A stretch of DNA of 44,503 nt from Sulfolobales archaeon (GCA_038841535.1 JAWBTQ010000009.1:1-44503); one strand, 5' to 3'; positions 15,334-32,852 are shown, counted from the first letter of the stretch. The notes: generated from the letters alone by a model not told the origin. Made by a program: numbers and translations.

Positions 15334-16695
15334 ATGGGACAAATAATTCAAAGTATGCGATGCATTGAGGGACTCCATTCATTAGCTCTCCTCTTGCTTC
15401 TCGCGATAATAGCCTGCGGAGTCTCTACTTATCTACACGTTCCTTCGAGTTTAGCACCCTTTAGTAACTTTGGGTTAAAGTATAGTGATATCGTCTTTGG
15501 CGTATTTTACCCAAGGTTTTCAGCAGACTACGAATCATCATCTAAGTATTGGTATAACGTAGAGATCTTGAAGCTGTTAATGGAAAGAAAAGTAGTTTGT
15601 CCAGTGCCCTACATTGACTATTCTTTTGAGTATCCTCCGCTTGTTGGCTTATTGTGGTACATTAGTACGTGTTTCTCTATAACAATAACACTCCGAAGTG
15701 AATCAACGTCGCCTTATGCGAGTTCCTATATTCATAGCATCGCGGAGCTACACTTTATCGTAAATGCTTTCTTTCTCTCGCTTTCCCTCCTTCTCTCAGT
15801 CTTCTTTCTGCATAGACTAGTAATAACATCAACTAAAAAGCCCAGTTTTCTGAGTATAGCCACCTGGCTCGTTTTACCATCGACTATACTCTATTCAATC
15901 TATAATTGGGACGTGATTTGTTTAGCTTTTGCCTTAAGTTCCCTCGTAGCGCTACATAGAAAAAAGTACTTTACTTCTGGGGCTTTAATTGGGGCATCTA
16001 TAGCAACAAAACTTATGACCGCATCAATAGCTTATACTATCTCTCTGTACCTGTTATTAAGGTCGCACAGAGGTGAAAAATTACGTAACTTTAGCTTGTT
16101 TCTTCTTGGTATATCGATCTTCGGTGCTACTCCGTACGTTACCTTACTAATGGTCTCACCTAGAGGTTTTTTTGATTTTGTAGCACATCACTCGGCTTGG
16201 TACTGCGAGAACTGTATTTACTTACTGTTTATTCACGACATATTTAGCTATCTCCATAGGACCCTAGCGATAGCTTTAGTAATCATCCTAGCAATTACTA
16301 TAGCACTCCTTATTTTTAATAGGAAAAGTATAGAAGACAGCTCGTGGCTCTATAAGCTATCAACTCTCTCCACGCTGGGAGCTGTACTGTTTAATTACGT
16401 GTTCTCACCACAAATGATACTTCTTTTTTCTCCTCTAGTTATGGTTTTCTTCGTCAAAATAAGTCGAATAGCGTATATAGCATCCGATACAGCAAACTCC
16501 CTCATAATGGTTCTCTTTTTCTACGATAGCGACATTAGGTATCTCCTCAATAGATCTGGCATTCCAGTGGAAGTAAGGTTCAGCCCTTGGACTATAGACT
16601 CACCAGTGCAGTGGCTTGCGGCAATAAGGAACATCCTTTTGCTACTGATATTCGTAGTCGAACTGGTGAGGCTCTCGAGGAGTAAGCCACTATAA
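15334..16695 (+). CDS. GT-C fold membrane glycosyltransferase (GT87/DUF2029-like)
   Basis: Polytopic; motifs YSDI, PYIDYSFEYPPL, NWD, K in helix (ATKL) and VFSPQ. Confidence 0.82.
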   Translation: MGQIIQSMRCIEGLHSLALLLLLAIIACGVSTYLHVPSSLAPFSNFGLKYSDIVFGVFYPRFSADYESSSKYWYNVEILKLLMERKVVCPVPYIDYSFEYPPLVGLLWYISTCFSITITLRSESTSPYASSYIHSIAELHFIVNAFFLSLSLLLSVFFLHRLVITSTKKPSFLSIATWLVLPSTILYSIYNWDVICLAFALSSLVALHRKKYFTSGALIGASIATKLMTASIAYTISLYLLLRSHRGEKLRNFSLFLLGISIFGATPYVTLLMVSPRGFFDFVAHHSAWYCENCIYLLFIHDIFSYLHRTLAIALVIILAITIALLIFNRKSIEDSSWLYKLSTLSTLGAVLFNYVFSPQMILLFSPLVMVFFVKISRIAYIASDTANSLIMVLFFYDSDIRYLLNRSGIPVEVRFSPWTIDSPVQWLAAIRNILLLLIFVVELVRLSRSKPL

Positions 16696-16937
16696 CCACT
16701 CATATTTTTCTAGACACTAACTCCTGTTAGTCCAAATAACAAGGAATTTCTGTACTACTTACTGTTTAAGGTCGTAGACCGCTGGCAAATCTAGTAGGTT
16801 GAAATCACTATTTACGCTTGTGGGCATACGCTGCGAATAGCTTTAGGCTAGTTCCTCCATTGTTCGGAATCTCTGAGTAACCTAACCTAGCACCGAAGCA
16901 CTGAGGTCACCGAATAAATTCTTGAGGCATCGGTAGG

Positions 16938-17279
16938 CTATTTACTAATGACGTCACCCCACTCTTGCTGCAGTTCCTCATCAGTAGCAGAGCTTTCAAT
17001 AAGTTGGCACTCAGAGTAAGCTGGCTTTATTTCCTCGGGTTTAAACTTCTTTACTACTAATTCAGTGGACCTCTTCTGGGGGTGAGTAATTATATTTACA
17101 TATGCTCTAGCTATAGCCGCAACAGTAGCTTCACTAAAAACTAGGACCTGGTCTGAGAGCTCTATGATCATGCGCACGTGCCTGTGCCCTCTAGGTATTA
17201 TTGCCACTACTCTCTCAACATCGCAGTTCCTATACCTTAATACCTTTTTACCAAATTTCTGTCCACTACGATCTCCCAA
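16938..17279 (-). CDS. Hypothetical protein (probably conserved in crenarchaea)
   Basis: 113-aa ORF with globular composition (PRGHRHVR...EATVAAIARAY...THP), co-oriented downstream of the SDR fusion. Confidence 0.7.
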   Translation of the reverse strand: MGDRSGQKFGKKVLRYRNCDVERVVAIIPRGHRHVRMIIELSDQVLVFSEATVAAIARAYVNIITHPQKRSTELVVKKFKPEEIKPAYSECQLIESSATDEELQQEWGDVISK

Positions 17280-17340
17280 CGCTCTCTACCTACAACTATT
17301 CAATACTAGGACCTTAACACCGCATCAAGAAAACAAATGT

Positions 17341-18309
17341 TTATGCTCTAGGCGATGATATTGTGAGCCCTAGGTCTATTGGTATGACTACACCGTTTAG
17401 AGCTTCATTTTCAACTATATGTCTTACAAGTCTAGCCACTTCCTCAGGTTCTATAAGCCTTGAAATGGGCGACCTCTTTAGGTAGTCCCTCAGTATAGAC
17501 TTCGGTACTGCTAGAGCCATCCTAGTTCTAACAAACCCTGGTGCTATAGCTACAACCCTTATACCATACGGAGCTAGCTCCTTTGCTAGAGTATACGTTA
17601 AGCCTATCAGACCCGACTTTGAGGCTGCATAGTTAGCCTGCCCCACGTTCCCGACTAGTCCGACTATGGAGGACACGTTCACGATAACGCCACCCCCAGT
17701 TCTTATCATGTGCTGTGAAACTGCTTTTGAGCAGTAAAATGCCCCAGTTAGGTTAACCCTTATAACAGCATCCCAGTCTTCAGCCGACATTCTCTGTAGG
17801 TACGAATCTCTAGTTATACCGGCGTTGTTGACTAGGACGTCTACTCTCCCAAGCTTACTTAAAACTTCGCTAACTCCTTTTTCGACAGATTCTCTATTTG
17901 AAACATCAATAGTTACAAAGACTGCCTCCATACCGGTCGATTTTACTGTCTCTAGAGTTTTCTCAGCTTCTTTATCGTAAGCTAAGTCTGCTATAGCAAT
18001 CGAGAAACCTGCTTTAGCTAGCTCTATAGCGATCGAAGAACCTATCCCCCTTGCTCCTCCTGTAATAAGGGCTACTCTAGGTACCTTAACTTCCTCTTTT
18101 GGTACAAATCTCTTTATAGTACCAAATACGGTCCACTCCTCGACTACATCTCCAAGCATACCGCTTCTCAACCTGCCGAAGTACTTGCGGTCTATTCTGA
18201 CAATCGCTTTATTACCACTCTCATCTTCAGCTACACCTATGGCATACGTCGACTTGTAGGGAGGTAGAGGAGTGTAGAGTTCTGTATAGGCAACTAGCTT
18301 CCAGACCAT
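17341..18309 (-). CDS. DUF35-type OB-fold domain fused to a FabG/PhaB-like 3-oxoacyl reductase (SDR)
   Basis: The N-terminal ~75 aa (KLVAYTELYTPLPPYKSTYAIGVAEDESG...LRSGMLGDV) resemble the DUF35 OB domain. The SDR follows with TGGARGIG, NNAG, S, YAASK and PGFVRT. ATG 18309 has a GGTGA RBS. Confidence 0.85.
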   Translation of the reverse strand: MVWKLVAYTELYTPLPPYKSTYAIGVAEDESGNKAIVRIDRKYFGRLRSGMLGDVVEEWTVFGTIKRFVPKEEVKVPRVALITGGARGIGSSIAIELAKAGFSIAIADLAYDKEAEKTLETVKSTGMEAVFVTIDVSNRESVEKGVSEVLSKLGRVDVLVNNAGITRDSYLQRMSAEDWDAVIRVNLTGAFYCSKAVSQHMIRTGGGVIVNVSSIVGLVGNVGQANYAASKSGLIGLTYTLAKELAPYGIRVVAIAPGFVRTRMALAVPKSILRDYLKRSPISRLIEPEEVARLVRHIVENEALNGVVIPIDLGLTISSPRA

Positions 18310-18313
18310 AAGA

Positions 18314-19465
18314 TCACCTAGCAAAAATCGCTACCGCCACGGTTCCCCCGGTACCTCCATGGTTTTCCATCAAGCCCTTCTCAGCGTCTTTAATCTGCCT
18401 ATCACCAGCTTCACCTCGCAGTTGCCAGAAGAGCTCTGTTACCATCCCGACCCCCGTAGCACCAATTGGATGTCCCTTCGACTTTAACCCACCGCTAGGA
18501 TTGACGGGCTTCTCTCCATCAAACATGGTGACTCCATCTCTCAAGATCTTAGCTCCCTCCCCCCTCCTTGCTAGCCCAAGCATTTCGTATGCTATCAACT
18601 CAGATATAGTGAATGCATCGTGAACTTCGAGGACATCCACATCTTTAATACCTAGGTTCGAGATCTTGAAAGCTTCTTCAGAGGCGAGCCGAATAGCCCT
18701 TAACTCCGTCATGTCTAGACGCTCGAATATCCCCGGGGTATCGTGGGCTAGTCCAACGCCTTCGATGTAAACCGGTGTATCTGTGTACTTCCTTGGTTCA
18801 CTACTGATTATGAAACCGGCTGCTCCATCAGTTATGAGAGAAGAATCATATAGCTTTAGTGGCCACGAAACGTACGGAGACCTCATTACATCCTCAATAG
18901 TTATCTTTCTACGCATAGCAGCTAGCGGATTTCTCAAACCGTTTTCATGGTTTTTAACTGCAACTAGAGCGAGATCCTCCTCGGTAGCACCGTATTTGTC
19001 CATGTAAGCCTTCGCTATGAGAGCATAGAGAGATATAAAAGGAGCCCCCGCAACTATTTCATCCGGGTGTCCAGCTGCCATTAGAACCTCATTAACTTCT
19101 GCGCTAGTGGGCTGATAGCTCATCTTTTCGTAACCAACTACTAAAACGTTCTTAGCTAAACCACTCCTCACTAGATTCCATGCTATATATAGAGCCGTCC
19201 CACCTGAAGCGCAAGCATTTTCCACTCTCAATCCCTTAGCATTCGACCGTCCCACTAGAGATATAGCGTATGGTGCCGTATGAAGAATCCCACCAAACCT
19301 ATCTGAAAAATTCGAAACAATTACAAAATCTATATCTTCACCACCGATCCCTCTATCAACGGAACTCAAAGTTCCTTGAACAGCTTCCTTTAAGAGATCC
19401 CATGCCTCCTTTTCAGACCTAAGTTCGTACTTGGTGCTATAAGCACCTACTACACCTACCCGCAA
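18314..19465 (-). CDS. Thiolase (SCP2-type/archaeal DUF35-partner acetyl-CoA acyltransferase)
   Basis: Catalytic Cys in ENACASG; EVHDAF, GHPIGATG and a C-terminal NHGG in place of CxGGG. Confidence 0.93.
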   Translation of the reverse strand: MRVGVVGAYSTKYELRSEKEAWDLLKEAVQGTLSSVDRGIGGEDIDFVIVSNFSDRFGGILHTAPYAISLVGRSNAKGLRVENACASGGTALYIAWNLVRSGLAKNVLVVGYEKMSYQPTSAEVNEVLMAAGHPDEIVAGAPFISLYALIAKAYMDKYGATEEDLALVAVKNHENGLRNPLAAMRRKITIEDVMRSPYVSWPLKLYDSSLITDGAAGFIISSEPRKYTDTPVYIEGVGLAHDTPGIFERLDMTELRAIRLASEEAFKISNLGIKDVDVLEVHDAFTISELIAYEMLGLARRGEGAKILRDGVTMFDGEKPVNPSGGLKSKGHPIGATGVGMVTELFWQLRGEAGDRQIKDAEKGLMENHGGTGGTVAVAIFAR

Positions 19466-19509
19466 GTTTCTCCCCTACTGTCTATTCATCCTAATTAAAC
19501 ATTCTTTGG

Positions 19510-19525
19510 GTTACCTGTGATTACC
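19510..19525. promoter_or_regulatory. Candidate operator/activator box upstream of the thiolase promoter
   Basis: GTTACC-TGTG-ATTACC, a degenerate match to GTWARC-N4-GYTWAC. A TATA-like TTTAAT lies on the minus strand at 19494-19499. Confidence 0.5.
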
Positions 19526-19542
19526 TCCACGCCAGAAAATTC

Positions 19543-20304
19543 TTACTGGTTCACTTGCTTAAGCTTAAACCTACCTCTTGTAGCGGAAGTACTTTCGAGA
19601 ACTCTCAAAACTAGGTTTATGGCGTTTTTCTCAGCTCTTCTGAGTGTTTTAGCTACGGCCACTCTTGAAATTCCGAAGTCTCTAGCTAGCGAGCTGATGT
19701 CTGTTCTTCTAGGCCACTCATAGTATCCTAGTGCTACGGCTGTAGTAAGTAGCTCTAGCTGTTTCTCAGTTAACCTACCCAAGCTTTCCTCAAGTAATGA
19801 GAGTAATCTGAAGTAGTCTAGCGTGAGCAAGTGTTCAGGTAGCTCCACAAGTTTATACTTCTCGATGTAATCGTATTCAGAAACTTTTCTCATGAATTCC
19901 CTTAAGTGCTTAGCTGTGTGAAATCCCAAAGTCCAGCGCTCGAATCCATTGAAGGCTACCCATGCCGCCAGAGGTGTAGCATCGTGATTGACTACAGCCT
20001 CCATAGTGTTGGTCTTGCTTATCAACATACCTGCCTTTATGTATTTCCTCTTTTTCTGTAAAACTTCATAGCTCTTAACGCTCCCTATAGAACTCACTTT
20101 CTTTAATACTTCATTAATAGTGCCATCATCTCCGAGGACAACAATGTAAATCTTTTCGTAACCTCTTCTAATCTCGGCTACGTTAGCACCTACAACCAGT
20201 ATACTGGAATCCTTAACGTGCTCGGTAAGCCAAACGACTGGACAATCATATTGAACTATATCAAATATTCCAACATACACTACTCCTAGCCCATATACAG
20301 TCAT
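19543..20304 (-). CDS. HTH-10 (bacterio-opsin activator-type) transcriptional regulator
   Basis: C-terminal LTEKQLELL..AVALGYYEWPRRTDISSLARDFGISRVAVAKTLRRAE; N-terminal DCP motif. Confidence 0.92.
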   Translation of the reverse strand: MTVYGLGVVYVGIFDIVQYDCPVVWLTEHVKDSSILVVGANVAEIRRGYEKIYIVVLGDDGTINEVLKKVSSIGSVKSYEVLQKKRKYIKAGMLISKTNTMEAVVNHDATPLAAWVAFNGFERWTLGFHTAKHLREFMRKVSEYDYIEKYKLVELPEHLLTLDYFRLLSLLEESLGRLTEKQLELLTTAVALGYYEWPRRTDISSLARDFGISRVAVAKTLRRAEKNAINLVLRVLESTSATRGRFKLKQVNQ

Positions 20305-20505
20305 TTAAAACGTAAATTAAGCTTTTAACTATACCTGCGCAGAAATTAAATAAATATCGTTGATAGGTAAAAACCGTTTAAAATATCGAATAAACACCGC
20401 ATTAACTTGGTGATAATATGAAGAATCTTCTATTCAAATATTAGCGTATGATGTTTGGATGCTTCTTCTAACACACGGTGCTTGCATCCACCTCTTCTAC
20501 TAGCT

Positions 20506-21333
20506 TTAAGCTGTTTTACCTATGGGATTACTGTATATGAAGCCGGCGAGTAAGTAATTAATAACGCTAGGTTTCTCCAGGATGACGGCGTGTCCTGACT
20601 CTCTAACTTCTACATATGTTGAGTTGGGGATTTCACTAGCTATTATCCTGGAGTATTTAGGTGGTTTTACCCGGTCTTCCTCCGCAGAAACCACTAGTGT
20701 TGGTGCTTGAATATTTCTTAGTAGTGCTGTTAAAGGTGAATCCACAAGCTTCAGGAATGACCTGATAAGATGAGCTGCTGAAGTTAAGCTAAAGCCTCTC
20801 GAGAATGCGTCAACTAGTCTATCAAATAATCCTCTTCCTTGTTGAGCTATAAACCTCTCTGAGTATACGTCGCTAATCCAAGACAATACGAATTTTCTTA
20901 CATCTAGGGAAAGAGCTCCCTCAAGCCATCGCATTGCCGTAATCCTAAGATCCTCTCGAATCTCACTCACTGAAGCTATCACGGTTAAATCGTTGACATA
21001 CTCTGGGTACCTAATCGTGAAAAGCATGGCTACTTCACCTCCGTACGAGGTTCCAACGATATGCACTTTCTTTAAACCAAGGTGGTCCAGTAGGTTTCTC
21101 AGGTCCTCTGCGTGAATTTCTAGACTGTACTGGCTTCCATCATCTGGCTTATCGGAGTTCCACTGTCCTCTCATGTCGTGCAACACTACTTTATAGTTTA
21201 ACCTAACTAAATGGCTTCTCTGAAATATCCAGCTAGCCGTACTCATGAATATTCCATTTAAGAATACCACTGGCTCCCCATCTCCATATACTTCGTAGTA
21301 TAACTTAATACCTCCTACGTTTACTGTAGGCAT
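20506..21333 (-). CDS. Alpha/beta hydrolase (esterase/lactonase, PcaD-like)
   Basis: DMRGQWNS, nucleophile elbow GTSYGG, EED acid and SGHA His. Confidence 0.9.
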   Translation of the reverse strand: MPTVNVGGIKLYYEVYGDGEPVVFLNGIFMSTASWIFQRSHLVRLNYKVVLHDMRGQWNSDKPDDGSQYSLEIHAEDLRNLLDHLGLKKVHIVGTSYGGEVAMLFTIRYPEYVNDLTVIASVSEIREDLRITAMRWLEGALSLDVRKFVLSWISDVYSERFIAQQGRGLFDRLVDAFSRGFSLTSAAHLIRSFLKLVDSPLTALLRNIQAPTLVVSAEEDRVKPPKYSRIIASEIPNSTYVEVRESGHAVILEKPSVINYLLAGFIYSNPIGKTA

Positions 21334-21338
21334 ACTCT

Positions 21339-22628
21339 CTACCTACAGCAAACTACATTATCTAGCAACAGTTTTTCTATATCGCTTTCCGAATAGTCAA
21401 GAAGCTTTGACAAAACGACCGTAGCATCCTGACCGAGTACAGGAGAGCCTCTCCATATCTTCGGCTCATCCCTCATTAAGAACTTAGGAACGATCCCCCA
21501 TCCATTTATTCTATCTCCTAAAGTTTCATCTACCCACTCAATAAAGTCTCCTCTAGCCCTGTAGTGAGGGTCTTCGAGAGCGTCCTTAAGGCTGTATACC
21601 TTAAAGCAGGGAACATTATAGCTCCTCAGTATTCTCAGAACTTCTTCGGCCGTCCTCTGCTTTACCCACGACCTCAAGATGTCGTCGAATCGTTTTCCCT
21701 TATCTGTATGCATGCCTGGAGCGTAGTGAACATCCTTCCATTCTTCAAAGTCTGCTTGTATAGCATCACATAACCTCCTAAAGACGTCGTAGCCTAATGC
21801 TCCAACAAACACGTACTGTCCGTCCTTAGTCTCGAAGATGTCGTAGGGCTGGAAGTATATGTCTTTATTTCCTCGCCTAACTGGAACATCCTTGAGCTCG
21901 GCCGTCTGGATCCACAAGCCTCCGAAGACGTTCGCTATACATTCGAATTGGGCTACATCTATTGTGACCCCTACCCCAGTTTTTTTAGAGTGTATATAGC
22001 CCGCAAGAGCAGCAGATAGAGCGTGTAGAGCTGTTAGATAGTCTCCAGTGTACGGATAGGGCTTATACGGAGGTGACTCAGGAAAGCCGTTTATACTCAT
22101 CCACCCACTATAAGCAGCAGCTATAGCATCGTACGCTGGTAGCCCGAGGTAGTTGGGGTCTCCGAAGTGCCCAAAACCGGATATGTGGACTATAACTATC
22201 TCAGGGTTTACTCTCCGGATGACTTCATCCGTTATACCGAGCTTTTGGTAAGTTCCTGGCATTGAGCTCTCCATCCATATATCGGCATGCCTGAGCAACC
22301 CCAAGAACACTTCCTTACCTTTATCTTTCTTAAGGTCGACAACAATTGACAACATGTTTCTCCTCTCTTGAGCCCACCAAGTGTTAACTCTGCCTTTACC
22401 TTTCTCGATGAACGGTGGAGAGTACCTGTACGTATCACCCCCAGGTCTCTCCACGTGAATGACTTCAGCTCCCCATAGAGCTGCCAAATAAGCAGCGAAA
22501 GGCTGAGCTATGAGAATTCCCGAAGATACTATTCTTAACCCAGATAATGGCCCGGATGCCTCAGTAGCTAAAAGAGGGGCTCTTTTCTTGGGTCCGCTGG
22601 AGATCTTAGATACTAAGTCCTCGAACAT
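21339..22628 (-). CDS. Family III CoA-transferase (CaiB/BaiF type)
   Basis: Motifs GPLSGLRIV, IAQPFAA..WGAEVIHVE, PAYDAIA and PYTGDY (catalytic Asp). ATG 22628 is preferred because a TATA box and operator fall within the ORF-track 5' extension. Confidence 0.92.
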   Translation of the reverse strand: MFEDLVSKISSGPKKRAPLLATEASGPLSGLRIVSSGILIAQPFAAYLAALWGAEVIHVERPGGDTYRYSPPFIEKGKGRVNTWWAQERRNMLSIVVDLKKDKGKEVFLGLLRHADIWMESSMPGTYQKLGITDEVIRRVNPEIVIVHISGFGHFGDPNYLGLPAYDAIAAAYSGWMSINGFPESPPYKPYPYTGDYLTALHALSAALAGYIHSKKTGVGVTIDVAQFECIANVFGGLWIQTAELKDVPVRRGNKDIYFQPYDIFETKDGQYVFVGALGYDVFRRLCDAIQADFEEWKDVHYAPGMHTDKGKRFDDILRSWVKQRTAEEVLRILRSYNVPCFKVYSLKDALEDPHYRARGDFIEWVDETLGDRINGWGIVPKFLMRDEPKIWRGSPVLGQDATVVLSKLLDYSESDIEKLLLDNVVCCR

Positions 22629-22677
22629 ATTGGATTTCCAAAGGTCGTATGTACTGTAGTGCCTTATAGATACCAAA

Positions 22678-22693
22678 TTTAGCTTTTGTTAAC
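22678..22693. promoter_or_regulatory. Candidate operator/activator box upstream of the CoA-transferase promoter
   Basis: TTTAGC-TTTT-GTTAAC. A TATA-like CTATAA lies on the minus strand at 22664-22669. Confidence 0.6.
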
Positions 22694-22714
22694 AACTAAG
22701 CACTCGCTGTTCTG

Positions 22715-23707
22715 CTAACTTATCCACTTAAAAGCTATCGCACCCTGCTGGTACCCAACTCCTGAAGCCACTAGTATGACGACCTTATCTTTTTCAACTT
22801 TACCTTGTTCTATAGCGTCGTGGAGCGCCATGTAGATGCAGGCTGAACCAGTGTACCCATACTTATCCATAACCCAATGGGTTTTTGTCTCAGGTAGGCC
22901 AAGGTTTTTCATGACATCGAGTATCGTTTTCAGGCGTACCTGAGTAAATATTACCTGGGCTATCTCGTCCAAGCTTATGTTGGCCTGACTGATCACGTCC
23001 TTTATGAGAACTGGCCAGTACTGGTCGTTGACCGGTGGGTACGCCTTTCTTAGGTCGAGGAAAGGCAGATTCTCGTCTGTTACCTGCTCAGCAACCGGCT
23101 TCCAAGCACCCAAGAATATTCCCCAGTAGTCCCAGAACGAACCATCAGCACGCAGTTTTCCTGCTAAATAGCCAGGTGCGTCTGAAGCAGATAACACTAC
23201 AGCTCCAGCACCATCAGAGAATATCCACTCCCACATGAACTTCCATCTAAGGAACCTAGTCATAGCGTAGACTCCTATTACTAAGATATTTCGATACTTC
23301 GGTTTTCCAGCTATTATGGATGATGCTACCTCAAGCATATATACTGGGTTAGCGCAGGAAGCGTTTATGTCAAAAGCGGGAATCTCATAAGGGCCTCCCC
23401 CTAGAAGACTTTGGACTTTAGGTGCCGTCGGTGGAGATATAGCCTCGGGAGTATCTGTACCTACTATTATCATGTCTACATCCTTTATTGTCAACCCAGC
23501 CCTATCGAGAGCCATTTTAGCAGCTTTAGCAGCCATAGTCGCCGGAGTCTCCTCTGGAGGAGCTATCCTCTTTATTTTCAACCCGGTTCGCTCTATAAAC
23601 AGCGGATCTACTTTAATTCCGGTTTTCCCCTCAAAATCCTCTGGAGTCATTATAATCTGGGGTATGTATACCCCAGTAGATGCTATATATGCAAATCGTC
23701 TGGACAT
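22715..23707 (-). CDS. KAS III (FabH)-like enzyme with a non-canonical active site
   Basis: AFDINASC (Cys retained) and FSDGAGA, but IFTQVR replaces PHQAN and YGYTGSAC replaces GNTSAAS. Confidence 0.9.
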   Translation of the reverse strand: MSRRFAYIASTGVYIPQIIMTPEDFEGKTGIKVDPLFIERTGLKIKRIAPPEETPATMAAKAAKMALDRAGLTIKDVDMIIVGTDTPEAISPPTAPKVQSLLGGGPYEIPAFDINASCANPVYMLEVASSIIAGKPKYRNILVIGVYAMTRFLRWKFMWEWIFSDGAGAVVLSASDAPGYLAGKLRADGSFWDYWGIFLGAWKPVAEQVTDENLPFLDLRKAYPPVNDQYWPVLIKDVISQANISLDEIAQVIFTQVRLKTILDVMKNLGLPETKTHWVMDKYGYTGSACIYMALHDAIEQGKVEKDKVVILVASGVGYQQGAIAFKWIS

Positions 23708-23741
23708 TTCAGCCCTAGATATAGCTCGGTATAAACCTTAA

Positions 23742-23757
23742 GTAAGCTGATGTTTAC
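23742..23757. promoter_or_regulatory. Candidate operator/activator box upstream of the KAS III-like gene
   Basis: GTAAGC-TGAT-GTTTAC palindrome, 6 bp from TTTATA (23730-23735, minus strand), which is about 23 nt before the ATG. Confidence 0.68.
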
Positions 23758-23800
23758 ATATGATGCTATGACTTCTTTACACCTCACTGTCGCGTATGGT

Positions 23801-24508
23801 CTACAACGCTCCCAAGTAGTATTCTTTAAGTATCTCGGGCTTGATTATCTCATGAGTTTTACCGCTTCTGACTATAGTTCCCATTTCAATAACGTGAACC
23901 GTTTCTGCCGTCTCTAGTACTATAGTCGGGTCTTGTTCGGCCACGATCAATGATATCCCAAACTCGTCTTTGATTCGTTTCAGAATTTCAACAACTCTTT
24001 TTCTCATAATGGGTGCTAGTCCAGCCGAAGGTTCGTCTAGTATCATAAGCTTACCCGCCATCAGTAAGGCTATAGCTATAGATAGCATTTTTTGCTCACC
24101 ACCACTCAAAGTACCAGCTATCTGAGTTTTCCTTTCTTCAATGATCTTGAACAGCCTGGTCACTTCTCTGAATCTGTCTCCACAGTACTTAGACATACTC
24201 GCAGCCAGCTCTATGTTTTCACGTACTGTCAGGGTCCTCAGGACACCCCCTCTTTCTGGCACGTAACCTATACCGAGTCTGACCATTTTATGAGTTGGAA
24301 GCCCAGTGATGTCGTTTCCCTCATACAAAATCCTACCTCTCCAAGGCTTTAGGTATCCCAGTATCGTTTTAATCAGTGTAGTTTTTCCGGCACCGTTAGG
24401 CCCTATTAAGCCAACAACTTCCCCTAAGTTTACGGTAAAACTAACTCCGTTTATCACCACGGTCTTCCCGTATCCGACTACGAGGTCTGCTACTTCAAGT
24501 ATCCTCAC
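23801..24508 (-). CDS. livF: Liv-type (HAAT) ABC transporter ATP-binding protein
   Basis: Motifs GPNGAGKT, YVPE, AGTLSGGEQKM, LDEPSAGLAP and AEQ. Confidence 0.92.
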   Translation of the reverse strand: MRILEVADLVVGYGKTVVINGVSFTVNLGEVVGLIGPNGAGKTTLIKTILGYLKPWRGRILYEGNDITGLPTHKMVRLGIGYVPERGGVLRTLTVRENIELAASMSKYCGDRFREVTRLFKIIEERKTQIAGTLSGGEQKMLSIAIALLMAGKLMILDEPSAGLAPIMRKRVVEILKRIKDEFGISLIVAEQDPTIVLETAETVHVIEMGTIVRSGKTHEIIKPEILKEYYLGAL

Positions 24509-25224
24509 TATATCACCCCAAGGTAAACCTTAGCAACCTCCTCGTTGCTCACTGCCTCACCAGGCTTTCCTTCAAAAATCTTTTTGCCCTCGTTTAGTAC
24601 GACTACTCTTTTAATTAACTTCATTAGGTACCTTAGTTTATGCTCTACTATAACAAACGTCAACTCTTTTTCATTAAGCTTCTTTATTATCTCAATAGTC
24701 TCATCGATCTCACCTGGAGAAAGCCCTGCGAATGGTTCATCTAGGAGTACCAGCTTCGGACTAGTGACTAAAGCTCTCGCTAGTTCAACCATTCTTAGCT
24801 TGTATGGAGTTAAGTTGACGGGGAGTTCTCCGGCTTCAGCCAAGAGTTTTGTGATAGTTAATGCCCAAGTAGTTTTAGCTCTAGCAAGTCTCGTGTCTTT
24901 ATACACGGATCGAGCAGATAGGCTCACGTTATAGTAAACCGGGAGGTAAGGGTATACTCTCATACCCTGAAATATGCGTGAGATCCCCAACACTACTCTC
25001 TTATGGGGCTTAAGTCTTGTAATATCCTTACCTTCAAATACCACTCTACCCTCATCAGGTGTGAGTACCCCCGTGATTACGTTTACGAGGGTAGTTTTTC
25101 CAGAACCATTGGGACCTATTAAACCTAAGAGCTCGCCCCTATAGACTTCCACTGAGACCTTATCGAGAGCTACAATACCTCCAAACTTTTTAGTTACGTT
25201 ATCACAAACTAACAATTTCTCCAC
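24508..25224 (-). CDS. livG: Liv-type ABC transporter ATP-binding protein
   Basis: Motifs KKFGG..AL, GPNGSGKT, LLDEPFAGL, VEH and VYLG. Confidence 0.92.
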   Translation of the reverse strand: MEKLLVCDNVTKKFGGIVALDKVSVEVYRGELLGLIGPNGSGKTTLVNVITGVLTPDEGRVVFEGKDITRLKPHKRVVLGISRIFQGMRVYPYLPVYYNVSLSARSVYKDTRLARAKTTWALTITKLLAEAGELPVNLTPYKLRMVELARALVTSPKLVLLDEPFAGLSPGEIDETIEIIKKLNEKELTFVIVEHKLRYLMKLIKRVVVLNEGKKIFEGKPGEAVSNEEVAKVYLGVI

Positions 25225-25226
25225 TG

Positions 25227-26264
25227 TTACTCACCCGCTACTAGCTCAGCCAGCTTCGACGAAATTATGTGCTTTAGTCTCATGTATAGGTAGTAGACTA
25301 TCCCCTGTGGTCTAAGTAGGACTAATACGATAAGAAGACACATATAAAGTATCACTCTCCATCTTCCTAGGACGTCCCAAAGAACTTCATAAACTAAGAG
25401 TATGAAATAGTTGGCTAAAGCAGGACCCACAATCGTTCCCATACCACCCAGAATAACCGCAGTCAACGGTGGGACTAGAGTGTTCGCTGGGATAAACACA
25501 TCCACAGTCATCGGAGGCCTCATTGCAGCATATATAGCACCGGCAAACGACGCTAGAGATGATGATATGAGGAACCCAACTAGTTTAACTCTGAGGGTAT
25601 TTATTCCAGAAGCTTCCGCTAGAAGCTCGTCTTGACCTACGGATCTCATCATAAAGCCGAAGTCCGAGTAAGCCACTTTGTAGCTAACTATAAAGGCGAT
25701 TATAGCAGCAATAGATGATATGTAGAAGTAAGTTGACTGCAAGAAGAAGGCTCTCTCTCTAACTGGAAGACCTCTAGCATACGAGAAAAGTAGGGGGGAG
25801 TAAGTAATACCGCCCTCGCCCCCTAAGTATAATGAGAAAGGCTGTGACGTTACTATTCCGGCCATAACAATGGGCAGTAGCAGCGACATTATAGAGAAGT
25901 AGGCTCCTCTCACTCTTAAACTAGGAAGAAATATTACTAGACTGAGGACTAAAGATATAGCAGCTGATGGTAAAATGGCGTACTCAACCGACACCCCCAG
26001 ATATCTATTTAAGAGAGCTACTGAGTAAGCAGCACATCCTACAGTGAACGGTACTCCAAGGTTGAGGTAAAACGTTGTTCCTGAGTATAGGTCTAGCGAG
26101 AGAGTTATTAAAAGAAAAATGTTTACTCTAGTTAGAACATCGAGCCAGAAGCCCCTTAACCCAATTACAGGTAACAGCATGTAAATAGTAGCACTCGCGA
26201 GGATAGGTAGGGTTCTCTTCACCCTCTTTAACCTAGAGGGTCTAGCGAATGCCAGTCTACTCAC
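25227..26264 (-). CDS. livM: Liv-type ABC transporter permease
   Basis: Motifs LRVRGAYFSI, DELLAEASGIN, ILGGMGTIVGP and RPQGI. Confidence 0.9.
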   Translation of the reverse strand: MSRLAFARPSRLKRVKRTLPILASATIYMLLPVIGLRGFWLDVLTRVNIFLLITLSLDLYSGTTFYLNLGVPFTVGCAAYSVALLNRYLGVSVEYAILPSAAISLVLSLVIFLPSLRVRGAYFSIMSLLLPIVMAGIVTSQPFSLYLGGEGGITYSPLLFSYARGLPVRERAFFLQSTYFYISSIAAIIAFIVSYKVAYSDFGFMMRSVGQDELLAEASGINTLRVKLVGFLISSSLASFAGAIYAAMRPPMTVDVFIPANTLVPPLTAVILGGMGTIVGPALANYFILLVYEVLWDVLGRWRVILYMCLLIVLVLLRPQGIVYYLYMRLKHIISSKLAELVAGE

Positions 26265-27111
26265 CCCTACCGAAGAGTCCGTGGGGTCTAAAGATTAGCA
26301 CTAAGAGTATTAAAACTAGGGGGGCTACACGTGCTATACCTCCTCCTAGAGCGTATACCATGAATTGTTCAATAAAGCCGTAAATTAGTGATGCGACAAC
26401 AGTTCCTAGAATATTACCGATGCCTCCCATGACTACTATCGCAAAAGCGGCAAATAGAGGTGACCACCCGGCAGTCGGTGTTAAAGCCTTTAATGGAGCT
26501 AGCAGAATACCTGTGAAGGCAGCATAAACTCCAGATACCAGGAAGGTAGTCCTTAAAACCTTTAAGGGGTTTACACCTAACCTCATCGATTCCTCCCAGC
26601 TCTCTGCAACTGCTCTAATCGCTTTTCCAACACTAGTTCTGTAGAGAAAAACGAGAAGCGCTAAGACCATAACTAAACAGGCGGCTGTAACAAGCAGCCA
26701 GTGATTGCTTACTGGAACACCTAATACCGTGGTTGTCCCAGGGTATAGGGGGAGGGTTGCTGGCCTGAGTCCCATTTGAATCCTAAATAGCTCCTCAAAT
26801 ATGTAGGCTACCGCCATCGTGGTTATAAAGACGCTGACTGGGAACTTAATAGCTGGCTTAATAATTGACTCACCTATAGCAAGGCTGACAGCAGCGGTTA
26901 ACAGAATCGAGGCAGGTACTGCTAAGTATAGAGGGGCGTTCAAGTAGTTTAGAAAAACGTACGTAGAGTAACCCGTGAGTACATATAGAGCTCCATAAGA
27001 GAGATTAGGTAACCGAGCAACACCAAAAACTAAAGAAAAACCCAGTGAGAAAACAAGGTACGTCAATGAGTGAAATAACCCAAAAATGAGTATGTACCTT
27101 AGTTCTTCCAA
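26257..27111 (-). CDS. livH: Liv-type ABC transporter permease
   Basis: Motifs LGFSLVFGV..NLSYG, GKAIRAVAE, VVMGGIGNILG and RPHGLFG. Confidence 0.9.
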   Translation of the reverse strand: MEELRYILIFGLFHSLTYLVFSLGFSLVFGVARLPNLSYGALYVLTGYSTYVFLNYLNAPLYLAVPASILLTAAVSLAIGESIIKPAIKFPVSVFITTMAVAYIFEELFRIQMGLRPATLPLYPGTTTVLGVPVSNHWLLVTAACLVMVLALLVFLYRTSVGKAIRAVAESWEESMRLGVNPLKVLRTTFLVSGVYAAFTGILLAPLKALTPTAGWSPLFAAFAIVVMGGIGNILGTVVASLIYGFIEQFMVYALGGGIARVAPLVLILLVLIFRPHGLFGRGE

Positions 27112-27121
27112 CCTTAGTTCC

Positions 27122-28510
27122 CTATGGCCAGGGTATCTCTACCCAGACTCTAGTACCGTCTACAGACTTAGGAAGCAGTAACCTTGTTCCTTGTTCCACT
27201 ACTCTAAACGGCCAAACTACTACTCTTCTGCCCTGCTGCCACTGGAAGTATATTGGGTATATTCTATCCGGAGCTAACTTAGCAGTATGGCTTCTGGTGA
27301 ATTCATAAATACCAGCAGTCCCCACGAAGGTCGAGGTCTCTAAAGCTTTGATGACTTTATCTGTTTCAAACGTTCCAGCCTTTTTAACTGCTTCAGCCCA
27401 CACGTATACTGAGTCGTAAGCATACCATGTCGTAAATAGAGGTTCAGTTCCCAATAGCTTGCTATACTTTTCGTAGAACTCCATCGTCCTAGGTGTAATG
27501 GGGGCTGGGAACCCCCAAGAAATGCATATCAATCCTTCGGCAGCCCCCATAGTCTGGTTGTAGAATATGTTGAGCATAGCATATGTCCCACCTCCTACAG
27601 CTAATAGAGGGACCTGACCTAAGAAGTAGTCCCTCGCATAGACGTAGTCTTCTGTGCCAGAGAACTGCCAAGTTATGTACTGAGCACCAGAAGCCATGAC
27701 TCTGGCAAAGACGTCAGTGAAGGAGGTTATGTCTGCGGGTACCCCAATTGCTGTTACGACCTCTATGCCTTCCTTCTTAGACCTCTCCTGACCGTATAGA
27801 GCGTGTGGGATAACCCATGGTAAGTCCTCATAGATCCACGCGACTTTAGTCCAGCCAAACCTTCTTGAGAGGTACGCCAGCAGGTCCCATGTAGCTGCTG
27901 CCTGAGATGTTGCGTTGACGTATGCTCTAAACCAGTATTTATAATATTCATAGTTCTCCAGTACTTTAGCGTCGATAGCATCACTAACAGCACCAGAAGC
28001 TATAATTAAGACCTCGTAAAGAGGTAGAAGGTCCATTATTGCTAGGGCTTCGTGTGAGCCAAAGACTCCAAATATTACTTTAACCCCATCTTCAGCCAGC
28101 TTCCTATAGCCTTCAGCGGCCTTATCTCCACTCCACTGCGTATCGTAGGGCACTAGCTCGACCTTGTGGTTTAGGACTCCTCCAGCAGCGTTTATTTCCT
28201 CTATAGCAAGCTGTATTGCTGCCAGCATCATTGTTCCTATAGGTAAGTTGAGAGGAAGGAGAGCCCCAACCTTTACAGTTCCAACAAACTGTGGGGGTGT
28301 GGTAGTAGGGGGTGTTACCGGAGTGGTTAGCACGATCGTTGTAGTAGGTCCGGGCAGTGTTAAGGTTTCTCTAAGAGTAATAGTCATATATCTTGTGATC
28401 TCGACTCCAGGGACAGTCGGGGTAGCTACTTGCTGACCTACGAAGTAGCCAACTATTCCAGCTACGACTATGAGTACTATCAGTACTGCCTGAATTATTT
28501 GAGGCTTCAT
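27122..28510 (-). CDS. livK: Liv-type ABC transporter substrate-binding protein
   Basis: N-terminal TM anchor, Thr/Pro-rich linker, VKVGALLPL, AIEEINAAGGV, AYD and FQWQ. Confidence 0.9.
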   Translation of the reverse strand: MKPQIIQAVLIVLIVVAGIVGYFVGQQVATPTVPGVEITRYMTITLRETLTLPGPTTTIVLTTPVTPPTTTPPQFVGTVKVGALLPLNLPIGTMMLAAIQLAIEEINAAGGVLNHKVELVPYDTQWSGDKAAEGYRKLAEDGVKVIFGVFGSHEALAIMDLLPLYEVLIIASGAVSDAIDAKVLENYEYYKYWFRAYVNATSQAAATWDLLAYLSRRFGWTKVAWIYEDLPWVIPHALYGQERSKKEGIEVVTAIGVPADITSFTDVFARVMASGAQYITWQFSGTEDYVYARDYFLGQVPLLAVGGGTYAMLNIFYNQTMGAAEGLICISWGFPAPITPRTMEFYEKYSKLLGTEPLFTTWYAYDSVYVWAEAVKKAGTFETDKVIKALETSTFVGTAGIYEFTRSHTAKLAPDRIYPIYFQWQQGRRVVVWPFRVVEQGTRLLLPKSVDGTRVWVEIPWP

Positions 28511-28554
28511 ATAGTCACCGATCCCTTAGTGGAATGAAGAGTTAAAAACCTCAA

Positions 28555-28570
28555 GTTAACAGACGCTAAT
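28555..28570. promoter_or_regulatory. Candidate operator/activator box upstream of the substrate-binding protein gene
   Basis: GTTAAC-AGAC-GCTAAT, 6 bp from TTTTTA (28543-28548, minus strand). The spacer TTGAGG resembles TTAAGG at the KAS III promoter. Confidence 0.65.
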
Positions 28571-28584
28571 CTGAGTTTCACAGC

Positions 28585-29304
28585 CTACAGTATATTTCTC
28601 TCTTTCAAGAATTTCGACAGCAAATTCACAACAGTACTTTCCATTCCTGATAGCGTGTGAGTCCCACCCTCTACTAAGTGGAATTCCACATCGTATTTTA
28701 GCTCTTTAAGCTTTCTATACAGAGCTTCAGACTGAGACACGGGCACCATAGAGTCTTCCGAACCATGAATTAGCAGCACGCTTCCCGAAATCTTATCTAC
28801 GTAGGTTATTGGGCTAGCTAGCTCGTAAAGCTCCCTGTTTTCGTCGGGTTCTCCGAGAGTAGACCTGACTAAGTCTGCTATGTACTTCTGCGGGCTTCCA
28901 TGGGGAAACTTTGATAGAAATCTATAGAGGTCTGCTAAATCAACCCACCCACCTACACTCACAACAAACCTCACTCTTTCTTGTGTTGATGCTAGCAAAC
29001 TTACAGTTCCACCTAGAGATATCCCTAGGAGCCCGAGCCTCTCAGGGTCAACTCCGCTTAGAACTTTAAGCTTTCTTATAGCTCTTATGGCGACAGCAAC
29101 TCCATCACTGGCGTCAGTATATCGTGGAGCAAAAGCCACCATCCCCAGAGTGGCAAGTTCTTTAGAATAGTACTCGACATCCTCAGGTTTTTGATTGAAA
29201 GCGTGAAGAACAACTGTAGCGGGTTTCTGCTCCGCCAGAGATGAGTAGTAGAGATAACCAGGTACGTCCTGGGTCTTCACCTTTGAGATGCTCATAGTTA
29301 GCAC
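28585..29304 (-). CDS. Alpha/beta hydrolase (S9/dienelactone-hydrolase-like esterase)
   Basis: VDPERLGLLGISLGG (Ser), IHGSEDSMVP (Asp) and GGTH (His). Confidence 0.88.
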   Translation of the reverse strand: MLTMSISKVKTQDVPGYLYYSSLAEQKPATVVLHAFNQKPEDVEYYSKELATLGMVAFAPRYTDASDGVAVAIRAIRKLKVLSGVDPERLGLLGISLGGTVSLLASTQERVRFVVSVGGWVDLADLYRFLSKFPHGSPQKYIADLVRSTLGEPDENRELYELASPITYVDKISGSVLLIHGSEDSMVPVSQSEALYRKLKELKYDVEFHLVEGGTHTLSGMESTVVNLLSKFLKERNIL

Positions 29305-29440
29305 CGTGAGAGGAGATCGCTAGATAGCTATTAAAATGCTGAGCGGGATCTTTAACTACTTAACAAGACTAAGTATGCTCGACATTGTACGCTACAACAC
29401 CCCCGGGAAATGCAGGAATAGGGAAGCCAGACGCAGTTCC

Positions 29441-29727
29441 GCGAGGGGTTCAGCTCTCGTGTTGGTTTATATGGGTTGACTTCATTGCCCCATCTCTTTC
29501 CCCGCATTCTTCTCGGGTTCTCATCAGGCTTGGGGGCGTTCGAGGTGACCTCGGGCACCCCACATCTTGAGTAACTCGGGGAGAGCCCGCACCTCATCTA
29601 CGTGGCTCTCGATCCCTTATCGGGCAGCCTCTACACATCAATCAAACAGAAACACTCGTAAGCGTTTCCGCAGCGTCTATAGAGCAACACAAACCAATAC
29701 GAACCCGAAACAGTTGCTTGAGGCTTT
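29441..29727 (-). mobile_element. Non-autonomous IS200/IS605 mini-element (internally deleted tnpB)
   Basis: Left-end-like repeat at 29689-29727. The tnpB 5' 14-mer at 29575-29588 is identical to 608-621 and joins directly to a tnpB C-terminal tail (YSRCGVP...NAPKPDENP). The end motif GCTGAACCCCTC is shared with 40666-40677. Confidence 0.75.
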
Positions 29728-29969
29728 ATCGCTCCATGACTCCATCTTATTGGAGCCTAGTCCGGGTCTTCACTAACTTTAGGTGGTCTAGTCCGTGTCT
29801 TCTTTCACTGAAATCTCTTATCGGTGGCCACAGAGAGTCTCTGCTTCTTGAGCAAGTCTCTATGGTCGGTTATTGATAATAACCTTTATAGAGCTCAAAA
29901 CAGTTCCTCGGGGCTCCATTTAATCTAACTCTTATATTCCTAGTTTTTCTATATCCAAAGGTGTAGTGA

Positions 29970-32780: not shown

Positions 32781-32852
32781 GTTCGCGGTCCTTTAAACGT
32801 GTTTGCTTCTAGCCTAATAAAGCACTCAAGAACTAGTCTTTAGATTTGTGCT

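Follow-up and report, generated by a model that had tools for sequence, protein, structure and literature searches.

A three-module archaeal locus with a Cys/Thr/Tyr KAS III-fold protein and a thiolase/OB::SDR pair, proposed to serve the catabolism of an imported ester, lactone or hydroxy/keto acid

We analysed a 44,503-nucleotide (nt) stretch of DNA from a Sulfolobales archaeon (GCA_038841535.1 JAWBTQ010000009.1:1-44503), here called the window, which is the entire contig C9 of a genome (G000) of 1.56 Mb in 40 contigs, 84% complete. Positions 17341-29304 hold 12 consecutive open reading frames (ORFs), all on the minus strand, and this locus is a mosaic of three separable modules: a serine hydrolase (est1) with a binding-protein-dependent importer; a KAS III-like protein with a CoA-transferase and a second hydrolase (abh2); and an HTH_10 regulator with a thiolase and an SDR fused to an OB domain (OB::SDR). 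We propose, with a probability of about 0.45, that the locus works as a catabolic assembly, put together from modules that also occur apart, whose substrate is an imported carboxylic ester, lactone or hydroxy/keto acid. The thiolase and OB::SDR represent a known thiolase/DUF35/reductase assembly in a fused form that lacks the zinc ribbon, and the KAS III-like–transferase–hydrolase module is the local form of a widespread operon.

An earlier, sequence-only reading had described 12 co-oriented genes of these families as a candidate regulon for uptake and catabolism of (R)-3-hydroxyacyl esters. The observation is confirmed by the ORF listing and by Pfam and NCBIfam profile searches, with scores read against the curated cut-offs, and the interpretation is partly supported. 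The same scans bear out the lack of acyl-CoA dehydrogenase, enoyl-CoA hydratase, acyl-CoA (AMP-) ligase and ACP genes that had been noted for the cluster, and found none in the rest of the window. All NCBIfam equivalog and subfamily scores lie below cut-off apart from that of FabG subfamily PRK12826.1-2 for the SDR (236.7 against 222), so that only superfamily membership is established for the following features.

28585..29304, minus strand: est1, cytoplasmic serine alpha/beta hydrolase, S9/BD-FAE/dienelactone-hydrolase-like (Peptidase_S9 62.8, BD-FAE 59.1, DLH 41.4 bits; GISLG nucleophile motif)
27122..28510, minus strand: HAAT (Liv/Urt-type) binding protein with an N-terminal membrane anchor and a Thr/Pro-rich linker (Peripla_BP_6 149.9 bits)
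26257..27111, minus strand: ABC permease, LivH/UrtB-like (BPD_transp_2 131.7 bits; UrtB 130 against cut-off 250)
25227..26264, minus strand: ABC permease, LivM/UrtC-like (BPD_transp_2 106.2 bits)
24508..25224, minus strand: ABC ATPase, LivG/UrtD-like (ABC_tran and BCA_ABC_TP_C; UrtD 168.7 bits, below cut-off)
23801..24508, minus strand: ABC ATPase, LivF/UrtE-like (ABC_tran 116.5 bits; UrtE 185.9 bits, below cut-off)
22715..23707, minus strand: KAS III-fold protein of the Cys118/Thr255/Tyr285 subfamily (ACP_syn_III and ACP_syn_III_C)
21339..22628, minus strand: family III (CaiB-like) CoA-transferase, probable gene within ORF 21339-22676 (PF02515 308.8 bits)
20506..21333, minus strand: abh2, serine alpha/beta hydrolase, carboxylesterase/enol-lactonase-like (Abhydrolase_1 109.2 bits; GTSYG motif)
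19543..20304, minus strand: HTH_10 transcription regulator, its N-terminal domain of ~170 residues without family match (HTH_10 66.4 bits)
18314..19465, minus strand: archaeal/SCP2-type thiolase with Cys85, His332 and an HDAF motif (Thiolase_C_1 139.9 bits)
18082..18309, minus strand: OB domain of the OB::SDR fusion, a zinc-ribbon-less DUF35 (OB_ChsH2_C-like), from profile comparison and model
17341..18081, minus strand: SDR domain of the fusion (ORF 17341-18324), FabG/(3R)-hydroxyacyl-CoA-dehydrogenase-like (adh_short 208 bits)
16938..17279, minus strand: orf113, a 113-residue ORF without Pfam or NCBIfam match, 61 nt downstream of the SDR, a possible 13th gene

Ortholog alignments place the start of the SDR fusion probably at the ATG at 18309 (322 residues) and that of the CoA-transferase probably at 22628, residue 17 of its ORF (429 residues). 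Judged from the intergenic gaps, of 74, 93, 38, 5, 201 (upstream of the HTH_10 gene) and 77 nt, the number of transcription units would be four or five. Shared orientation by itself means little, the neighbouring ORFs across 16938-33740 also lying on the minus strand.

Three modules and their conservation

The complete 12-gene order was found in five congeners (G001, G002, G006, G007 and G008). The G009 contig ends after seven of the 12 genes, in G004 the block of est1 and ABC genes is inverted and lies ~3.6 kb away, and G005 keeps 11 genes with the KAS III-like gene directly beside abh2. The full arrangement is confined to one genus and is a genus-level mosaic. The congener G003 has only the thiolase and OB::SDR within 20 kb. 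Outside the genus, the modules are split in G019, where HTH_10, thiolase, OB::SDR and a 355-residue hydrolase are on one contig and KAS III-like protein, transferase and abh2 on another, and G035, a member of another family, has just the thiolase and OB::SDR (65% and 51% identity). Orthologs of est1 adjoin the binding-protein gene in seven congener loci, est1 travelling with the ABC genes, and the HTH_10 gene stays by the thiolase and OB::SDR in G019, in G005 and on the diverged archaeal contig L165. The last of these (42-63% identity) carries thiolase, OB::SDR, HTH_10, a ligase, two hydrolases, ABC genes and a KAS III gene. The only invariant unit of the locus is the thiolase with OB::SDR; thiolase orthologs of at least 65% identity occur throughout the genus (10 of 10 genomes, counting G000) and in G019 and G035.

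Shared gene order within the genus says little, because the flanking genes orf113, orf453, orf269, orf242 and usp are equally collinear. Copies of orf113 (60-84% identical) hold the same position in five congener loci, within the genus only, and none was found beside the thiolase and OB::SDR in G003, G019 or G035. This conserved order of flanking genes, together with the splitting or rearrangement of modules in G019, G004, G003 and G035, is what speaks for three unrelated modules lying side by side in one collinear genus without any common function. The same families co-occur far away, however (L165, L151, L191 and L196; 75 distant loci set against 73 controls, below), and we regard such a chance juxtaposition as the least probable of the explanations weighed here. 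Co-conservation in other genomes, on which the sequence-only reading depended, was found: the whole locus in congeners, its families on L165, and the neighbours of the KAS III-like gene in distant loci.

The thiolase and its fused dehydrogenase

The SDR bears an N-terminal extension of ~76 residues that had been read as a fused DUF35 protein. The OB half of that assignment holds and the zinc ribbon does not: the fusion's own N-terminus has no Pfam match at E<=10, and zinc ribbon PF12172 was not found in it. When a profile of 14 fusion orthologs was compared by hhalign with one of 30 DUF35 proteins from related genomes, the OB domain matched DUF35 with a probability of 93.7% (E 1.9e-7) over 52 columns covering the OB half only (residues 58-111 of the 137-residue DUF35), against 1.0% for a reversed profile and at most 4.7% for 20 column shuffles. 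PF01796 itself matches six of 12 orthologous OB domains (best E 4e-4), and the G019 ortholog reached 19.8 bits in a genome scan. AlphaFold2 predicts a five-stranded barrel with a mean pLDDT of 85.8 for the OB domain alone, and the whole-protein model has the same strands. The domain was folded alone before the Foldseek search because the SDR domain would dominate a full-length one; ranks 1-4 were all DUF35 chains, namely 6esq_F (E 3.4e-3, TM 0.72), 6ok1_B, 6esq_E and 6esq_G (TM 0.72-0.73), with none at E<=0.001 and more DUF35 chains at ranks 6, 11, 12, 13, 24, 26 and 28. Independent support for the DUF35 identity comes from gene order on the metagenome contig L151, where a thiolase is followed by a free 118-residue DUF35 with zinc ribbon, an SDR, a KAS III-like gene and a hydrolase. 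Just one free DUF35 is encoded in nine of the genus's 10 genomes and at least two in 14 of 15 genomes from the family's other genera, a difference consistent with the second free copy having been lost through fusion.

Complex prediction has the OB domain docking on the thiolase. A modelled complex of the thiolase with residues 1-76 reached 0.85, and the best of three controls 0.00, on a measure whose mark is reached by 116 of 157 solved complexes and two of 215 mismatched pairs; three runs agree in at least 95% of contacts, with a partner pLDDT of at least 85. The score may reflect likeness to known complexes, since similar thiolase/DUF35 complexes have been solved (6esq, 7pxp, 5m3k). The fusion gives convenient access to the question of how partners are brought to thiolases by DUF35 scaffolds, and bears on whether thiolase/DUF35 assemblies serve degradation besides the fatty-acid synthesis lately claimed for archaea.

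The thiolase scores 395.2 on PRK06064 (cut-off 420) and has 7yvy, 4yzo, 6esq_A and BbsB (7pxp_C) among its solved relatives. It is one of two in the genome; the other belongs to a separate housekeeping operon of HMG-CoA-synthase-like, thiolase and DUF35 genes on contig C1, so the window thiolase is not the mevalonate-pathway enzyme. The HDCF/HDAF motif was considered as a marker of reaction direction and rejected for its mixed pattern: HDAF is found in the window thiolase, L165, BbsB and 7yvy, HDCF in 6esq, L151, L190 and L191, and HDSY in the housekeeping copy. The SDR scores 262.4 on the FabG model TIGR01830 (cut-off 297.75), and its best solved match is the (3R)-hydroxyacyl-CoA dehydrogenase 2et6 (226 bits). 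Asp108, at the end of beta-2, is invariant in 17/17 fused SDRs, and an Asp occupies this position in all eight SDRs of the module that were compared, five of which are unfused and come from other loci. An Asp at the end of beta-2 denotes NAD(H) preference by the classical SDR cofactor rule. The oxidative direction proposed in the earlier reading fits this NAD-type signature, which in combination with the importer, activating enzyme, esterases and TetR repressors tilts the balance toward catabolism while also being compatible with an NADH-driven reduction.

Three known systems are built from similar parts. The fatty-acid synthase complex of Sulfolobus acidocaldarius, as set out in the main text of a preprint, combines a thiolase (KT Saci_1121) and DUF35 protein (Saci_1120) with an SDR reductase (Saci_1104), strictly NADPH-specific, and a MaoC dehydratase; that main text names no DUF35-SDR fusion, none of its five uses of 'fusion' concerning DUF35 (Schmerling et al., bioRxiv 10.1101/2024.07.05.601840). 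The window pair shares with it an archaeal-type thiolase and FabG-like SDR, a DUF35-type OB fold as the docking element (here by prediction) and CoA-bound intermediates without ACP. It differs in several ways: the OB domain, without zinc ribbon, forms one protein with the SDR; the SDR signature is of NAD type; no MaoC was found and the locus has no enoyl reductase; and the genes are accompanied by those of an importer, esterases and a CoA-transferase.

In the catabolic Bbs system for benzylsuccinate beta-oxidation, a family III CoA-transferase (BbsEF), an SDR dehydrogenase (BbsCD) and a thiolase with a DUF35 subunit (BbsAB) act together. The same four families recur here, and would likewise serve CoA transfer, SDR oxidation of 3-hydroxyacyl-CoA and thiolysis by a thiolase with a DUF35 partner; BbsB, like the window thiolase, has HDAF, and the Bbs structures 7pxp and 9fn0 were among the solved matches. 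Unlike Bbs, the window thiolase reaches 184.5 bits on the BbsB model against a cut-off of 750, the transferase is nearer CaiB than BbsEF, the locus has no acyl-CoA dehydrogenase or hydratase, and the DUF35 domain is fused to the SDR rather than free. A third likeness is to the thiolase/HMG-CoA synthase/DUF35 complex of Methanothermococcus thermolithotrophicus (PDB 6esq), whose PhlABC/MucABC relatives are 5m3k and 9vbt (PMC12960953). Both encode together a thiolase, a partner of KAS III/HMGS fold and a DUF35 OB protein, and the OB model best matches the 6esq DUF35 chains. In contrast to that complex, this genome has its own housekeeping operon of the kind on another contig, and the KAS III-like protein has Cys/Thr/Tyr in place of the HMGS residues.

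That the closest characterised system is biosynthetic and assembled via DUF35 is one argument for reading the locus as one for acyl-chain synthesis. The predicted docking, the failure to find an ACP in the genome and the occurrence of thiolase and OB::SDR alone in G003 and G035 add to it. So do genes at ~90000-100000 of contig C2 (locus L058 2843-11696), where hbd-crt-bcd-etfB-etfA, without a thiolase and resembling a clostridial butyryl-CoA operon, could complete a reverse beta-oxidation cycle. Beside them lie two aldehyde:ferredoxin oxidoreductases and a 554-residue family I CoA-transferase; the hbd family is present in all 10 genomes of the genus and in G035, and in none of 15 from the family's other genera. 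The contrast with beta-oxidation drawn in the earlier reading needs correcting in emphasis: the cluster has no such genes, but the genome carries beta-oxidation-type genes outside the locus, with one acyl-CoA dehydrogenase and one crotonase. Against synthesis, the NAD-type Asp of the SDRs contrasts with the NADPH-specific reductase of the known complex, no MaoC dehydratase (PF01575) was matched in the 84%-complete genome, and no MDR-type NADPH enoyl-CoA reductase lies in the locus, a family that was not searched genome-wide. The recurrent importer, acyl-activating enzymes, esterases and TetR repressors are the usual make-up of a catabolic operon. Because of these and the NAD-type SDR we favour catabolism over chain synthesis, which we consider unlikely, if the strongest of the competing explanations.

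The KAS III-fold family and its operon

The KAS III-like protein contains both domains of the KAS III fold above the Pfam cut-offs (ACP_syn_III and ACP_syn_III_C, 57.3 and 80.3 bits) and lies below cut-off on the FabH models (PRK09352, 184.8 against 249; TIGR00747, 178.6 against 292.1). It had been called atypical, and alignments to three solved FabH structures (2ebd, 4ryb and 9ka2) confirm this: Cys118 is the retained catalytic Cys, Thr255 stands where FabH has the H-Q-A-N His, and Tyr285 where it has the G-N-T Asn. FabH needs its His and Asn for decarboxylative condensation. With both replaced, the Cys-His-Asn triad is absent and the protein cannot be expected to carry out that reaction; it is predicted to be non-decarboxylating, and to perform acyl transfer or a thiolase-like Claisen/retro-Claisen reaction.

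The Cys/Thr/Tyr pattern is present in 10/10 orthologs and in all 121 sequences formed by the query and its 120 best homologs, which include proteins of Thermotogaceae, Fervidobacterium, Pseudothermotoga, Caldilinea, Thermofilaceae and others, and on this pattern the family is a distinct, broad subfamily. Its members are labelled 'ketoacyl-ACP synthase III' throughout the databases, the Protein Atlas holding only generic clusters of that name. A PP-binding match, as for an ACP partner, was not found in the 84%-complete genome, which does not prove absence. A family annotated with a reaction that it should be unable to do is a testable gene-family problem, all the more for the company it keeps: esterases, acyl-activating enzymes, an NAD-type SDR and a binding-protein importer.

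That company was assessed by scanning metagenome contigs with the family alignment. This gave 80 loci, of which the five closest (at least 75% identity) were excluded and the other 75 (at most 56% identity) examined. Same-strand genes within 6 kb were taken as neighbours when a tblastn alignment extended over at least half of the query, and 73 loci centred on bacterial CoA-transferase homologs were counted identically as controls. The counts below are given for all loci, for those with at least 4 kb of flank, and for controls; the loci are not phylogenetically independent, and no P value is therefore given.

Alpha/beta hydrolase: 46/75 (37 directly adjacent); 31/44 with flank; controls 1/73
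AMP-ligase: 40/75; 30/44 with flank; controls 0/73
SDR: 15/75; 10/44 with flank; controls 6/73
Liv-type ATPases: 16/75; 16/44 with flank; controls 11/73
Liv-type permeases: 16/75; 16/44 with flank; controls 0/73
Binding protein: 9/75; 9/44 with flank; controls 0/73
TetR: 6/75; 6/44 with flank; controls 0/73
Thiolase: 3/75; 2/44 with flank; controls 0/73
DUF35: 2/75; 1/44 with flank; controls 0/73
Family III transferase: 0/75; 0/44 with flank; anchor gene of the controls

The families were confirmed by Pfam on 94 ORFs from 15 of the loci. Recurrent orders are hydrolase–KAS III–ligase–hydrolase and SDR–KAS III–ligase, and crotonase, MaoC, an MFS transporter or a beta-propeller protein are occasional additions. 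The ligases are generic fatty/aryl-acid CoA ligases and the hydrolases score best on the PcaD model, all below cut-off. The hydrolase count pooled est1 with other hydrolase queries. The abh2 type is the partner most often beside the KAS III-like gene, while est1 had no same-strand match of at least half the query length in the 75 loci and, in a separate count, turned up in just four close relatives. The idea of an archaeal system holds for the full 12-gene form, which is found in an archaeal genus, and not for its invention, the core being widespread in bacteria. This widespread operon is apparently undescribed: no description of it, or of the OB::SDR fusion, was found in full-text literature whose coverage lacks most subscription journals. 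As a separate observation, some bacterial forms of the operon, on the metagenome contigs L180, L206, L210 and L191, have two Cys/Thr/Tyr KAS III-like genes and two AMP-ligases in tandem sub-modules.

Two known pathways come near this core. In the lower beta-ketoadipate pathway, the enol-lactonase PcaD, the CoA-transferase PcaIJ and the thiolase PcaF act in turn, and here too a hydrolase would open a lactone or ester, the acid would be CoA-activated and a thiolase-superfamily enzyme would act on it. Among curated models, PcaD scores highest for abh2, at 110.7 bits, and for its bacterial counterparts, at 164.9 (cut-off 255.85); activation falls to a family III transferase or an AMP-ligase instead of a family I enzyme, and the thiolase-superfamily member has a KAS III fold. 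The OleABCD and beta-lactone clusters unite the same four superfamilies: KAS III-like OleA (a non-decarboxylating Claisen enzyme), the alpha/beta-hydrolase OleB, the AMP-ligase-like OleC and the SDR OleD. OleA keeps Cys/His/Asn, however, OleB has an Asp nucleophile and OleD is 3-beta-HSD-like, whereas the hydrolases here are GxSxG enzymes, the SDR is FabG-like, and the operon also has an importer and TetR. The core of KAS III-like protein, hydrolase and activating enzyme fails membership in both systems.

The transferase is covered over its full length by PF02515 (CoA_transf_3; profile positions 1-365 of 366). Its best solved relative is CaiB (E 7e-60), with 260.9 bits on the CaiB equivalog model NF002914 (cut-off 413). 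All 16 homologs aligned share the Asp of an A-Y-D motif, Asp183 here, which is presumably the catalytic Asp of family III CoA-transferases. The transferase occurs in single copy, and no second family III member was found in the genome. Its orthologs form 18 clusters at 68% identity or more, and the next relatives are bacterial, at no more than 46%. The neighbourhoods of the nearest bacterial homologs (~45% identity; 73 examined) held KAS III 0, thiolase 0, abh2 3 and SDR 10 times, and were of no help for function, sharing nothing with the locus.

The transferase stands in the slot held by an AMP-ligase in related operons, the order being KAS III–CoA-transferase–hydrolase here against KAS III–ligase–hydrolase there. 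From this gene order we infer a non-orthologous displacement of the ligase by the transferase, and the earlier suggestion of an ATP-free activating step agrees with it. No AMP-binding family match was found in the 84%-complete genome or in any of five related genomes, three of them 97-99% complete. An exchange of this kind would be an energy-saving displacement in a lineage where no AMP-ligase was found.

The proposed catabolic route, its possible substrate and the surroundings

For the catabolic assembly we infer from the sequences a direction, an order of steps, a substrate class and a mode of regulation. The HAAT importer would take up the compound with its binding protein, and est1 and abh2, both cytoplasmic serine hydrolases, would open it to the free acid. 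The CaiB-like transferase would then activate the acid using another acyl-CoA, doing the work of the AMP-ligase that the ancestral operon had. Tethered to the thiolase through its DUF35-type OB domain, the NAD-type SDR would oxidise the 3-hydroxyacyl-CoA to 3-oxoacyl-CoA, which the thiolase would cleave to acetyl-CoA and a shorter acyl-CoA. The KAS III-like protein would most likely perform a second thiolase-like cleavage, or an acyl transfer via Cys118. A bolder version, which we put forward as speculation and think improbable as a whole, would make the Cys/Thr/Tyr KAS III-fold proteins a widespread non-decarboxylating class, either thiolase-like or ester-to-CoA acyltransferases, that defines a bacterial-archaeal catabolic pathway for imported esters, lactones and beta-hydroxy/beta-keto acids. 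In these archaea the pathway would have been rebuilt in ATP-free form with a CoA-transferase for the ligase, and its last two steps hard-wired by a DUF35 OB domain that holds an NAD-dependent dehydrogenase on the thiolase; the KAS III-like protein might be a third partner in the style of the HMG-CoA synthase complex.

Several points weigh against the catabolic assembly. The locus of G005 is otherwise intact but without the transferase, which survives there as pseudogene fragments with at least five stop codons on contig C13 at ~33100-34700 (locus L022 9129-10697), away from the locus, and the G001 frame has one TGA (contig C11 368916-370241); the enzyme must be dispensable or replaceable. Activation and oxidation are not universal parts either, since the Thermotogae-like loci L154, L158 and L159 have the KAS III gene, TetR, ABC genes and a hydrolase with no ligase or SDR in the stretch covered. 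Because the thiolase and OB::SDR occur alone in G003 and G035, they have a role independent of the other modules. The step assigned to the KAS III-like enzyme is conjecture, and it is a sequence rule that points to NAD as the cofactor of the SDR. The solved relatives of the binding protein, tried as a guide to the ligand, proved too remote. The archaeal thiolase/DUF35 assemblies that have been characterised favour condensation, with a 60-fold higher efficiency toward acetoacetyl-CoA formation reported in the preprint (bioRxiv 10.1101/2024.07.05.601840).

The importer belongs to the HAAT superfamily, and the sequences suggest nothing narrower. The best solved relative of its binding protein is the amino-acid binder 3ip5 (E 2.4e-14), and the NCBIfam UrtA (59.5 bits) and LivJ-type (41.6 against 477) scores are both far below cut-off, as are those of LivH (66 against 379), LivM (75.6 against 366), LivG (154.3 against 362) and LivF (162.5 against 441). 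The binder and the HAAT membership would suit an import of branched-chain amino acids, with the SDR and thiolase joining the off-locus dehydrogenase and hydratase in oxidising isoleucine-type 2-methyl-branched acyl-CoAs and the other genes as bystanders. SDR-type 2-methyl-3-hydroxybutyryl-CoA dehydrogenases exist, the genome has one acyl-CoA dehydrogenase and one crotonase to draw on, and an oligopeptide ABC system is nearby in the window. An acid-activating enzyme recurs in the module, however, and is not needed for acyl-CoAs derived from amino acids; the transporter genes come closer to the urea-type models than to the Liv-type ones, all below cut-off; and the esterases and KAS III-like protein, as the most constant neighbours in distant loci, are not bystanders. 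An amino-acid route is in our judgement quite improbable.

The sequence-only reading had named scavenging of polyhydroxybutyrate or polyhydroxyalkanoate (PHB/PHA) oligomers and similar (R)-3-hydroxyacyl esters, by hydrolysis, CoA transfer to 3-hydroxybutyrate, oxidation to acetoacetyl-CoA and thiolysis. Its general enzyme logic is supported as in the broader catabolic proposal. CaiB-type transferases act on carnitine, a 3-hydroxy acid, and the SDR is similar to (3R)-hydroxyacyl-CoA dehydrogenase and to PhaB/FabG types. Among NCBIfam models, NF050089, for intracellular short-chain-length PHA depolymerase, is a best or high match for abh2 (73.7 bits) and the 355-residue hydrolase of G019 (101.7), est1-type matches reaching at most 20. 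These matches cover the N-terminal half only and are far below the cut-off of 300, and PcaD scores higher. The SDR likewise falls short of the models for 3-hydroxybutyrate dehydrogenase (TIGR01963, 181.5 against 307) and PhaB (NF042966, 172.1 against 436), so that a PHB/PHA-type substrate is not borne out by any curated PHA-related family. The best solved relatives of abh2 are the metagenomic esterases 5egn, 4q3l and 6eb3. A class III PHA synthase was not found in the 84%-complete genome, and the sequences fix neither chain length, stereochemistry nor ester type. We think this narrower substrate improbable, if slightly less so than the amino-acid route.

Hydrolases of 352-374 residues, by the thiolase pair in G019 and in bacterial loci, have the length of class III PhaC and were considered as PHA synthases. 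This idea was rejected: four of the five have GxSxG and the fifth AWSLG, with Ser and not Cys as nucleophile. The 406-residue hydrolase of L156 also has GxSxG.

Phylogenetic footprinting reveals a conserved motif, GT(A/T)A(A/C)C, placed 7-10 nt upstream of a TATA-like box in congeners, at the promoters upstream of the binding-protein (28511-28584), KAS III (23708-23800) and thiolase (19466-19542) genes. The 7-mer TGTWAAC is mildly over-represented, with 20 copies in the window where 11.3 are expected; one of 100 shuffles reached 20, and most copies are inside genes. As a shared operator the motif is weak, non-specific and not usable as regulon evidence, and control of all units by the HTH_10 protein, as first suggested, is not supported by it; the protein probably regulates at least the thiolase–SDR unit.

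Near-identical DNA occurs in hot-spring metagenome runs of six studies, with three entries marked as possible sources. In one metatranscriptomic library (X13, one study), contigs 95-100% alike cover parts of abh2, transferase, KAS III, permease and binding-protein genes and bridge the KAS III/transferase and binding-protein/permease junctions; contigs of this kind reveal neither strand nor ends nor level, and carried-over DNA may be their source. X13 has no contig for some bins of the locus and its flanks, which is no indication of silence.

Upstream of est1, ~940 nt (29305-30247) hold no convincing gene, tRNA or Rfam match, an 81-residue ORF there looking spurious; Rfam and tRNA scans of 16500-30400 gave no match. 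In contigs of one DNA run, 229 and 103 nt of this interval are missing at joints (29472/29598 to 29702) and there are loose ends with a short palindrome, which suggests strain-level structural variation. Elsewhere in the window, 8868-14261 (plus strand) encodes a complete Opp/Dpp-type oligopeptide ABC importer, with an SBP_bac_5 protein, two permeases and two ATPases with oligo_HPY tails. At 35899-40365 (minus strand) lies a three-subunit molybdopterin hydroxylase of xanthine/CO-dehydrogenase type (826-residue MoCo, FAD and 2Fe-2S subunits), followed by a gene for a MobA-like nucleotidyltransferase.

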